A stretch of DNA of 64,000 nucleotides from a virus (lineage: Duplodnaviria > Heunggongvirae > Uroviricota > Caudoviricetes). The DNA lies in the IMG/VR virus record IMGVR_UViG_2718218452_000012. The stretch is one strand, 5' to 3'. Shown piece after piece: positions 36,001-39,000 of this stretch. Every line of letters starts with the position of its first letter. The stretch's first letter is position 1. Made by a program: the position numbers.

Positions 36001-39000
36001 AGTAACAGAGAATATATTTGTTAATTTGGCGATACTTATTATTAAAATAGTAACAAATGCGATTACTGTATGTTCAAAGAAAACCCAAAAGTAATAAACT
36101 TTGTTCCAGAAAAGTTCAACGTAATGTTTGTCTTTTAACTCTTTAACTTCTGGGTAATACAGTTTACTCATTACCTTGTGAGATTCATCAGTAGTTAATT
36201 TTCTCGTAACGCCTGCAATTTTTGCTAATGGTTTAATAATTAAATGACTATCCCACATCTTCCTTATTCCAATAATTTTTGCTACATTATTATGTAGATC
36301 TAAAGCTCCACTAATTACTGACCAAAAAACTGAAGATGCAATTGGTAATATGCCAAAGGTTAATATCCATTTAATAAATTCCTCGTAGTCTTTAACGGGG
36401 GGGATATACTTGGCATTAATGCCAACCAATGGCATGTAGCCATAAATGACTAATGATAGGTAAAATATAAATGTAGTAATAAAAGTCGCCTTATGGAGCA
36501 TAGGCAACATTTCATTATAACTCTTTGGTGGTTCTAACATTTTACTCTCCAAACACTCAAAAAAAAGCTAATCTTCTATAATAACGAAATTCAGCTGGCA
36601 CAATTAAAGATTAATTGCCACCAATTTCTTGATTTTATAATTTTATCTAAATGTTTTTGATTAATCTAGTCCTAAAAGAAACCTACTGCATAAATATTTA
36701 TGCTGATGACCCACTCCCTGTTCGTTAACACATAGCAACGTTAGTAATGCATCCTAAGTGATCAATATTTTTGCTAGCTTCATCTGCTCGCTCAAAGGGA
36801 ACTATAATGTTGGCTTGCGTGTGACTTGGCATGTTTAAAGAAGTGCTGGTGGTGACTGGTTGCTGTTTTCCATTTCCACAGAACAAAATCATAGAAACTA
36901 TACCCAGTAGTTGTATTGAATCACTGACGAGACAGCCTCATATTTATCAGGACTGGTGTACGTCCAATACAGGAGGTTGTGGTGCTGGTTCTCAAATGTG
37001 CGCTGGCTATTGCTGCTGTAATGGCAATTTATTGTCTTGCTGTTGTTCTTATGGATCACCTTTCTGATTGATTTCATATTGGCGAGGTAACGGTAGTTAA
37101 GTAGAATTGCTGCGGGTGCTTGAGGCTATCTGCCTCGGGCATCAACACCAAAGGCAGATAGAGAAAAGCCCCAGTTAACATTACGCGTCCGGCAAGACGC
37201 TTAACATTAATCTGAGGCCATATCTATGCTCTACACACGTAGGTTAGCCTCTTACGTGCCGAAAGGCAAGGAGAAGCAGGCTATGAAGCAGCAAAAGGCG
37301 ATGTTAATCGCCCTGATCGTCATCTGTTTAACCGTCATAGTGACGGCACTGGTAACGAGGAAAGACCTCTGCGAGGTACGAATCCGAACCGGCCAGACGG
37401 AGGTCGCTGTCTTCACAGCTTACGAATCTGAGGAGTAAGAGACCCGGCGGGGGAGAAATCCCTCGCCACCTCTGATGTGTCAGGCATTCTCAACGCACCC
37501 GCATTTAACCCGCTTCGGCGGGTTTTTGTTTTTATTTTCAACGCGTTTGAAGTTCTGGGCGGTGCCGGAATAGAATCAAAAATACTTAAGTAGCGCGCAG
37601 GGATAAGAGGGATGGACCCCGAACAGGGGAGTGCTATTTATCTGGAAGGATTCTGTTGATGAAAATCGAAGAATTACGTGAAATTTTTACTGAAGATGGC
37701 CTCTATACTGTGCGCGTTGAGAATGGTGCTATTGTCAGTCACTGCCGTATTAAATGTTTACAATCTAAACAAAGGAAGAGTGGAGCTGCGTTAATTTATT
37801 TTGTGGATGAACTTGTGACAGATGGTTTTATTTTGCGTGAAAATGAATTTGTCACATCATTGCAGTCTCTGAAAGAAGCTGGGCTTAAGGCTGGTTTTTC
37901 TGCTTTTGAAGATGAGTAAATTCATCTACAATTCAGCACAGGGCTGAACCCCTGTTGAGTAACACTGTGCCACCGGAGAAAACCGATGGCGCAAAATTCC
38001 AGACCACACAATTCTGATAATTCAGCCGTCTTTGCCAGCAGGCACGGGCGGCGTTCTCATGCATTCAAATATGACTGGTACCAGCATGACCCATGCACTG
38101 AAGAACAGGCCGAATGGCTGATTCAGAACTACCGCAGGCGTGGGTATGAGTTTAGGAAAGCCCTCAGCCTCGATTATCGTCACTGGATAATCTACGTCAG
38201 GCTCCCTTATTCCGAACGCCCACCGCGTCCGTCCCGCACATTCCAGCAACGCATCTGGAGGTAACGTGCGGGTATTACTTCGACCTGTTCCGGTACCGGA
38301 ACTTGGGCTGGTGGTCCTTAAGCCGGGCCGTGAATCCATGCAGGTATTTCATAACCCTCGAGTGCTGGTGGAGCCGGAACCAAAAAGCATGCGCGGTCTG
38401 CCGTCCGGAGTCGTTCCTGCCGTTCGCCAGCCGCTGGCGGAGGATAAATCATTACTGCCATTTTTCAGCGATGAGCGGGTGATTCGTGCTGCTGGCGGCG
38501 CTGGTGCACTGTCTGACTGGCTGTTGCGTCATGTCAAATCCTGCCAGTGGCCTCATGGTGACTATCATCACAGTGAAACCGTCATACATCGTTACGGTAC
38601 CGGCGCGATGGTGTTGTGCTGGCACTGCGACAACCAGCTGCGTGACCAGACCTCTGAATCACTCGGGCAACTTGCTCATCAAAACCTGTCAGCATGGATG
38701 ATTGACGTCATACGCCATGCAATGAATGGCACACAGGAGCGGGAATTATCTCTGGCTGAATTATCCTGGTGGGCGGTCCGCAATCAGGTGGCGGACGCGC
38801 TACCGGAAGCTGTATTACGTCGTTCACTGGGGTTGCGTGCGGAAAAAATCCGCTCCTTGTACCGCGAAAGCGACATCGTACCGGGAGAGCAGACCGCCAC
38901 CAGCATACTGAAGCAGCGCACAAAAAATCTTGCGCCGTTGCTTCACACCCACCAGCCACAGAACCCAGCACAGGAAAAGGCGGTGGTCAGCATTACCGTT

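Follow-up and report, generated by a model that had tools for sequence, protein, structure and literature searches.

IMG/VR record IMGVR_UViG_2718218452_000012 (Caudoviricetes), analysed here as a stretch of 64,000 nucleotides (the window), carries just upstream of its hok/sok/mok locus a 29-codon open reading frame (ORF) that we regard, with considerable confidence on comparative grounds, as a selected coding gene. More guardedly, we favour on balance the interpretation that this frame is translated into a single-pass inner-membrane peptide, that the gene forms a promoter unit of its own and belongs neither to hok/sok nor among the classical type I toxins, and that its product acts by helix–helix contact. 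The elements concerned are as follows.

36916..36921, plus strand: −35-like hexamer TTGAAT (TTGAAG in divergent lineages), 17 nt upstream of CATATT
36939..36944, plus strand: −10-like hexamer CATATT of a putative weak sigma-70 promoter; nucleotide diversity 0.065, vs 0.26 in the 17-nt spacer
36971..36976, plus strand: Shine–Dalgarno (SD) sequence AGGAGG, 5 nt (spacer TTGTG) upstream of the GTG at 36982
36982..37071, plus strand: small ORF of 29 codons, MLVLKCALAIAAVMAIYCLAVVLMDHLSD, with a GTG start and a TGA stop (37069-37071)

An AGGAGG 5 nt before a GTG at 36982 that opens 29 hydrophobic codons is what the original prediction had described, and its coordinates and features proved accurate. 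Such an arrangement is not in itself informative: when the window was compared with shuffled sequences for AGGAGG sites that have a start codon 4-9 nt downstream opening a frame of 25 codons or more, the bare pattern was not above chance (4 sites in the window vs 2.4±1.4 in the shuffles). The case for the ORF thus rests on comparative data.

Among 138 loci that were compared (122 of these having enough flank for upstream and downstream comparisons), the ORF was intact in 135, as 30 distinct DNA sequences specifying 22 peptide variants; two of the non-intact copies had an indel, and one was without a stop codon. The GTG at 36982 was invariant in the 135 intact copies, and the SD was kept in c. 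97% of the 122 loci, as AGGAGG, AGGAGA, GGGAGG or AGGGGG. The alleles were then set against their consensus and the excess of synonymous substitutions was evaluated by a binomial test (with an expected synonymous share of 21-26%, depending on the frame). In the frame encoding the 29-amino-acid (29-aa) peptide there were 23 synonymous to 20 non-synonymous changes, where 26% synonymous was expected (p=1.5e-4); the third forward frame gave 10 synonymous to 26 non-synonymous (p=0.27). The ratio of non-synonymous to synonymous variation (pN/pS, calculated in the style of Nei and Gojobori) was 0.32 in the 29-aa frame vs 0.50-0.84 in the other five frames (0.50-0.74 if the 78-codon frame discussed below is also left aside), and variable sites at codon positions 1, 2 and 3 of the 29-aa frame numbered 11, 7 and 21. 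All of the amino acid replacements were conservative (A/V/T, V/I, M/V/I, D/E, H/R, S/T), preserving the hydrophobic helix, and the synonymous variation was distributed along the entire ORF. None of the 30 distinct alleles contained a stop codon, whereas the other frames gain and lose stops. Nucleotide diversity had its minima at the −10-like hexamer (0.065), the SD (0.08) and codon positions 1 and 2 of the ORF (about 0.04), the values being 0.12 at codon position 3, 0.27 in the spacer between SD and start, and 0.21 in the rest of the leader.

An additional in-frame GTG at 36979 would make the peptide 30 aa long. Only 51 of the 122 loci having enough flank possess this codon, most loci carrying GTC, GCC, AAC, ATC, TAT or GTT at that position; since it is replaced in most loci, while the GTG at 36982 is invariant, the latter is the true start, and the 30-aa version was discarded.

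The same DNA can be read in other ways, and the following frames have been deposited or annotated.

36831..37067, plus strand: Cys-rich frame of 78 codons with the tail CCCNGNLLSCCCSYGSPF, an alternative reading of the ORF and the DNA upstream of it; not a gene
36898..37077, minus strand: antisense frame of 59 codons, annotated in phage HannyBb; not a gene

The 78-codon frame had been proposed as the possible source of a Cys-rich secreted peptide, as an alternative to the hydrophobic 29-aa one, and it is indeed open in the window and has been deposited by gene callers as a 'hypothetical protein'. However, it lacks a conserved start, it is open over anything between 23 and 112 codons (deposited lengths are 47-98), and its CCC motifs mutate freely to CGC, SGC, YGC, CHY or CYC. 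Its substitutions look neutral (8 synonymous to 34 non-synonymous, p=0.70; pN/pS 0.84), its upstream part holds a 14-nt indel, and within its length there is no hydrophobic signal-like segment (the best 19-mer has a Kyte–Doolittle (KD) value of 0.89). With neither start, length nor Cys motif kept, the secreted-peptide reading is refuted, the chance of its being right being negligible in our estimation. Judged by its sequence, the 78-codon frame is a by-product, or shadow, of the GCT-, GTT- and TGT-rich codons that specify Ala, Val and Cys in the 29-aa frame. The antisense frame was ruled out by stops in 3 of 11 distinct variants and a pN/pS of 0.64. It is the 29-aa hydrophobic frame, with its invariant GTG, conserved SD, excess of synonymous change and predicted transmembrane segment, that turns out to be the genuine coding gene of the pair first proposed.

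What kind of protein might it encode? Residues 6-24 (CALAIAAVMAIYCLAVVLM) constitute one strong predicted transmembrane segment (best 19-mer KD 2.70; summed Hessa ΔG −2.9), with values comparable to those of HokD and MgtS. Lys5 lies N-terminal of the helix and there is an acidic C-terminal tail, D-(H/R)-L-S-D, so an N-in/C-out orientation is predicted from the positive-inside rule. No Pfam, NCBIfam, PHROG or PADLOC model matches the peptide; Pfam and NCBIfam searches at E<=10, with Hok/Gef (PF01848) included, gave only spurious matches to ATP synthase subunit c (E>=0.02), and a HMMER search of 1.84 billion cluster representatives recovered only the same peptide with spurious N-terminal extensions, and no distant homologues.

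In general design, the peptide resembles Escherichia coli small membrane proteins such as MgtS/YneM (31 aa), AcrZ (49 aa) and CydX (37 aa), which likewise have fewer than 50 residues, a single hydrophobic helix and a charged tail of a few residues (HKWDD in MgtS, DHLSD in the 29-aa peptide), and like them it has its own SD and has been missed by routine annotation; the conserved start and SD, and the purifying selection on the peptide, are as would be expected of a gene of this class. It differs from MgtS, AcrZ and CydX in being phage-borne and confined to lambdoid prophages of Escherichia and Shigella, and has no sequence similarity to them. The length and hydrophobic-helix design are also those of type I toxins such as TisB (29 aa), DinQ (27 aa), ZorO (29 aa) and the Hok/Gef proteins (PF01848), a resemblance that is confined to design (29 aa, with a predicted helix at residues 6-24) and does not extend to an antisense or complementary RNA, a long structured leader, a sequestered SD or a Hok/Gef Pfam match, none of which was detected. 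The earlier idea of a small membrane regulator is plausible, and by analogy with MgtS and AcrZ we put the chance that the peptide is a non-toxin membrane modulator at about even.

Upstream of the SD, the pattern of conservation at 36916-36944 is suggestive of a weak sigma-70 promoter, which would place the transcription start near 36951 and give a leader of c. 31 nt. CATATT is retained in divergent lineages whose spacer sequence differs: in three of them (loci L007, L008 and L012), homology with the window starts at TTGAAG/TTGAAT, is interrupted by an unrelated 17-nt spacer, resumes with CATATT, the SD and the ORF, and stops c. 16 nt past the ORF stop codon. The −35-like hexamer is a weaker inference than the −10, because it is replaced by TCTCAT in c. 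11 loci and is absent from BL21 and Escherichia albertii. A LexA box was sought by eye in the promoter region and was not found, the only candidate being a CTG-N6-CAG that is not a LexA box. A 12-nt direct repeat (36941-36952, TATTTATCAGGA; 37635-37646, TATTTATCTGGA) lies over the −10-like element and just upstream of the start of rem, probably by chance.

The window can be recognized as a Rac/Qin-like lambdoid prophage of E. coli: many E. coli strains (e.g. 55989) have chromosomal prophage DNA that is 100% identical to the region, and the gene order runs from repressor and cro-like genes through YdaT, an O-like gene and DUF977 to cargo genes, hokD, rem, DUF968, rusA and Q. The cargo occupies an island (33750-36790) between the DUF977 gene (33290-33712) and the 29-codon ORF, with a GC content of 0.28-0.35 vs 0.45-0.55 in the backbone, and comprises the following genes.

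33965-34864, plus strand: gene for a SMEK_N-domain protein (PADLOC Aga_REase-PNTD match at 1e-20)
35179-35772, minus strand: gene for a class I S-adenosylmethionine-dependent methyltransferase (weak mad2 match)
35845-36540, minus strand: gene for a 231-aa hydrophobic protein of no family

The cargo varies between genomes: besides a methyltransferase set, it may be DUF4145, QueH, a restriction endonuclease, a dATP/dGTP pyrophosphohydrolase, an MFS transporter, an AAA ATPase or a SIR2-like ORF, and because of this the slot between DUF977 and the ORF appears to behave as a cargo/defence hotspot of Rac-like prophages. Across genomes, at least 10 different cargo genes are found upstream of the ORF, with all the breakpoints to the left of the SD; as the ORF remains intact beneath all of them, it is independent of the cargo. 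One such genome is BL21(DE3) (L005, 1204-1613), in which a deletion joins DUF977 to DNA just upstream of the SD. The promoter-like element is gone and the ORF is still intact, and the DUF977 coding sequence, of 119 aa vs 140 aa, overlaps the start of the ORF with its last 40 nt in another frame. The overlap results from a secondary deletion fusion, and the possibility that the ORF is a remnant of the 3′ end of DUF977 was accordingly dismissed.

To the left of the promoter-like element, a block of c. 125 bp (36789-36915) is kept in many loci regardless of the cargo upstream, and is missing from the divergent loci L007, L008 and L012, which retain the ORF. It opens in most loci with an inverted repeat, GTCCGCT...AGCGGAC, that is degenerate in the window, and it is non-coding, containing the 14-nt indel already mentioned; on folding, the RNA of the conserved upstream region (36780-36950) was less structured than shuffles. 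The block may be a recombination anchor.

To the right, the ORF is followed by a complete hok/sok/mok (hokD) locus.

37079..37107, plus strand: hok promoter TTGGCG-17-TAGAAT, starting 8 nt after the stop codon of the 29-codon ORF
37114..37288, plus strand: hok mRNA leader and sok region (tac stem-loop, mok start), Rfam RF01794, 114 bits, E=7.9e-27; inverted repeat
37226..37438, plus strand: mok frame of 70 codons, containing hokD (37283-37438), as in the RefSeq annotation of the identical E. coli 55989 locus
37507..37533, plus strand: intrinsic terminator at the end of the hok mRNA, the first terminator downstream of the 29-codon ORF

The ORF had been described as lying next to hok. This is correct, and the ORF itself is not within the hok/sok unit: it ends at 37071, position 1 of the RF01794 model falls at 37114, so that the hok leader begins 42 nt downstream of the ORF stop, and the ORF is neither inside the hok transcript nor coupled to it or overlapping with it. 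Like mok, it is short and precedes hok on the plus strand, but mok (37226-37438) overlaps hok and is translationally coupled to it, whereas the 29-codon ORF ends 42 nt before the hok transcript. The two also part company in nature. Although hok follows in 109 of 122 loci (with the tac box starting 42 nt past the ORF stop in c. 100 of the 109), in the remaining 13 (L008 at 1660-1880, L020, L031, L052 and others) hok/sok, rem and the genes next to them are replaced by a reverse-oriented DUF1971 (TehB-C-like) gene followed by DUF1367, leaving only a c. 25-nt scar of the hok leader, TCCGGCAAGGTGCGCTCATTAATCTGA, and there the ORF is intact and has variant peptides of its own. Conversely, hok occurs without the ORF on plasmids and at most of its chromosomal sites, where homology is limited to DNA from c. 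37095 rightwards. From its presence in loci without hok, and its ending before the 5′ end of the hok mRNA, the ORF is independent of hok/sok, and, as far as sequence comparison can tell, it is not part of that system. In the Qin prophage of K-12 MG1655 (L021, 2620-3373), relB-relE ends 71 nt upstream of hokD, and the hok promoter, hok leader, mok and the 29-codon ORF are all missing; in NCTC9088 (L009, c. 1640; corresponding to c. 36930-37126 of the window), one deletion takes out the ORF and the hok promoter and cuts into the beginning of the hok leader, so that hokD is promoterless.

There is no terminator between the ORF and hok, and for this reason the ORF transcript probably continues into hok. 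In the region of the hok mRNA 3′ end and terminator there is a sub-threshold Rfam match to isrK (37447-37528, plus strand; 25.8 bits vs a gathering threshold of 50, E=0.004), which is probably a mere terminator resemblance (isrK is an Hfq-binding small RNA of the Salmonella prophage Gifsy-1), and a 38-codon ORF (37477-37593, plus strand) that overlaps the terminator, a 'hypothetical protein' in the records of HannyBb and mEp460_ev081, is likely to be spurious.

We envisage, then, a self-contained unit in which a consensus SD and a GTG-initiated ORF follow a weak sigma-70-like promoter, situated at the right edge of the cargo (defence-gene) slot that separates the DUF977 gene from the nin region. 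In lysogens its own promoter would drive transcription, and in lytic growth the unit would be read by rightward early transcription, the transcript probably running on into hok, and the peptide would act inside the membrane by helix–helix contact with a host or phage membrane protein, in the manner of MgtS or AcrZ. Phage morons, which are autonomous units of promoter and gene lodged between the core genes of lambdoid phages, provide a parallel: here too a compact −10-like element, SD and ORF lie between replication and nin genes, beside exchangeable cargo. Unlike morons, the ORF has no terminator of its own, and its GC content matches that of the phage backbone, not the low-GC cargo.

Several considerations weigh against this picture. 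All copies of the ORF are closely related (at least c. 80% DNA identity), providing few independent substitutions, and the non-coding flanks are more diverse (0.21-0.27) than the third codon positions (0.12), so that recent spread or a constraint at the level of DNA could explain some of the conservation. The −10/−35 pair matches the consensus at 8/12 positions and was not called by a consensus scan, and the −35-like hexamer is poorly conserved (diversity 0.24). A hydrophobic peptide of 29 residues gives no fold or family information, which means that its mode of action has to be argued by analogy only, and full-text literature searches gave no paper on the ORF. Might it be, then, that the ORF is not expressed or has no function, and owes its conservation to recent horizontal spread or to a DNA-level constraint, for example as a recombination anchor at the edge of the cargo slot? 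The close similarity of the copies, their restriction to phages of Escherichia and Shigella, the chance-level frequency of the bare SD and ORF pattern and the low third-position diversity are all compatible with this, but it does not readily account for a synonymous excess that is specific to one of six frames, for an invariant start and a conserved SD separated by a 5-nt spacer that is free to vary, for the absence of stops from this frame alone, or for homology blocks that in divergent lineages run from the promoter-like element to just past the stop codon, and we consider it quite unlikely. Another idea, raised in the original prediction, is that of a type I toxin, in this case one that depolarizes the inner membrane and is held in check by an undetected antisense or trans-acting small RNA. 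The size, hydrophobic helix and charged tail recall TisB, DinQ, ZorO and the N-terminus of Hok, and the ORF sits in a prophage beside another type I system; many small transmembrane peptides are toxic if overproduced. Yet neither an antisense promoter nor a small RNA across 36950..37080 was found by promoter scan, folding or complementarity. There was no promoter-like site on the minus strand in 36400-37700 (in a scan that is insensitive, having also missed the known sok promoter); folding of 36950-37113 did not exceed that of shuffles on either strand (z=-0.30, plus; +0.06, minus); and no inverted repeat or complementarity to the ORF region (36950-37075) was present within 36550-37650. No Rfam family covers the ORF, and no toxin model of PADLOC, Pfam or NCBIfam matches the peptide. 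Moreover, the SD is unpaired in the centroid fold of 36950-37113, and the short leader that we infer and the exposed consensus SD are the opposite of what is found in tisB, zorO, shoB and hok, which have long structured leaders; synonymous variation is spread along the whole ORF and thus shows no sign of an overlapping RNA constraint. As the search for these type I hallmarks gave nothing, the toxin idea is unsupported, and we think it unlikely.

A connection with hok might instead be functional, the ORF serving as a leader or upstream cistron that contributes to a 5′-extended hok mRNA, interfering with the hok promoter, or encoding a peptide that modulates Hok in the membrane. The fixed spacing (8 nt to the hok −35 and 42 nt to the hok 5′ end) in c. 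100 of the 109 hok-linked loci speaks for such a tie, as do the lack of a terminator separating the ORF from hok, the natural deletion in NCTC9088 that takes the ORF and hok promoter together, and the situation in K-12, where hokD, too, shares a transcript with the genes before it (relBE), as part of relBEF. Against this, the ORF is intact, and conserved at the amino acid level, in the 13 loci without hok, the plasmid hok loci and most chromosomal ones do without the ORF, and a leader role would need no conservation of peptide sequence, so that the proposal seems to us distinctly improbable. We accord equally little credence to a more elaborate reading, in which the peptide would be a membrane-active effector working with Hok (as a second toxin, or as a Hok-modulating peptide antitoxin or enhancer), made from a 5′-extended hok mRNA within a composite module of small ORF and hok/sok that borders a defence-gene hotspot and has a role in abortive infection or in the timing of lysis. 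The most likely interpretation is that the 29-codon ORF is a prophage accessory gene for a small single-pass membrane protein.

Of 5426 complete E. coli genomes, 1960 carry the 300-bp region that contains the ORF, with 79-100% identity and 1-4 copies per genome; E. coli copies number roughly 2250. Further copies of the ORF come from four isolated lambdoid phages (Tritos, Evi, mEp460_ev081 and HannyBb) and from at least 120 IMG/VR viral contigs. Among GTDB species representatives, it is present only in E. albertii, Escherichia ruysiae and Shigella flexneri, and in three contigs of metagenome-assembled genomes; these three, assigned to Collinsella, Ca. Scatousia and Haemophilus, bear the same peptide and are probably mis-binned. 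The stretch has no annotation in nearly all RefSeq genomes or in the phage records of Tritos, Evi and mEp460_ev081, and that of HannyBb has only the antisense frame. It had been supposed that either frame would be unannotated. This holds for the RefSeq records identical to the window, which have no feature over the 29-codon ORF, but GenBank already has entries for both the 29-aa peptide and the 78-aa frame, and the Prokaryotic Genome Annotation Pipeline (PGAP) calls a variant of the former: the exact 29-aa peptide is GenBank APK03751.1 ('membrane protein'), and a variant is RefSeq WP_000960667.1 ('MULTISPECIES: hypothetical protein [Enterobacteriaceae]'), which is on 650 contigs and is annotated by PGAP in at least one complete genome.

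The view of hok/sok is unchanged by these findings, and the gene is an ordinary kind of object whose existence is not surprising. It is carried, usually unannotated, by about one-third of complete E. coli genomes, among them those of BL21(DE3) and of pathogens (e.g. 55989), and it was missed in surveys of K-12 small proteins because K-12 lacks the ORF. It thus makes one well-supported addition to the catalogue of prophage-encoded small membrane proteins, and marks the conserved right-hand border of the cargo/defence-gene slot in Rac-like prophages.

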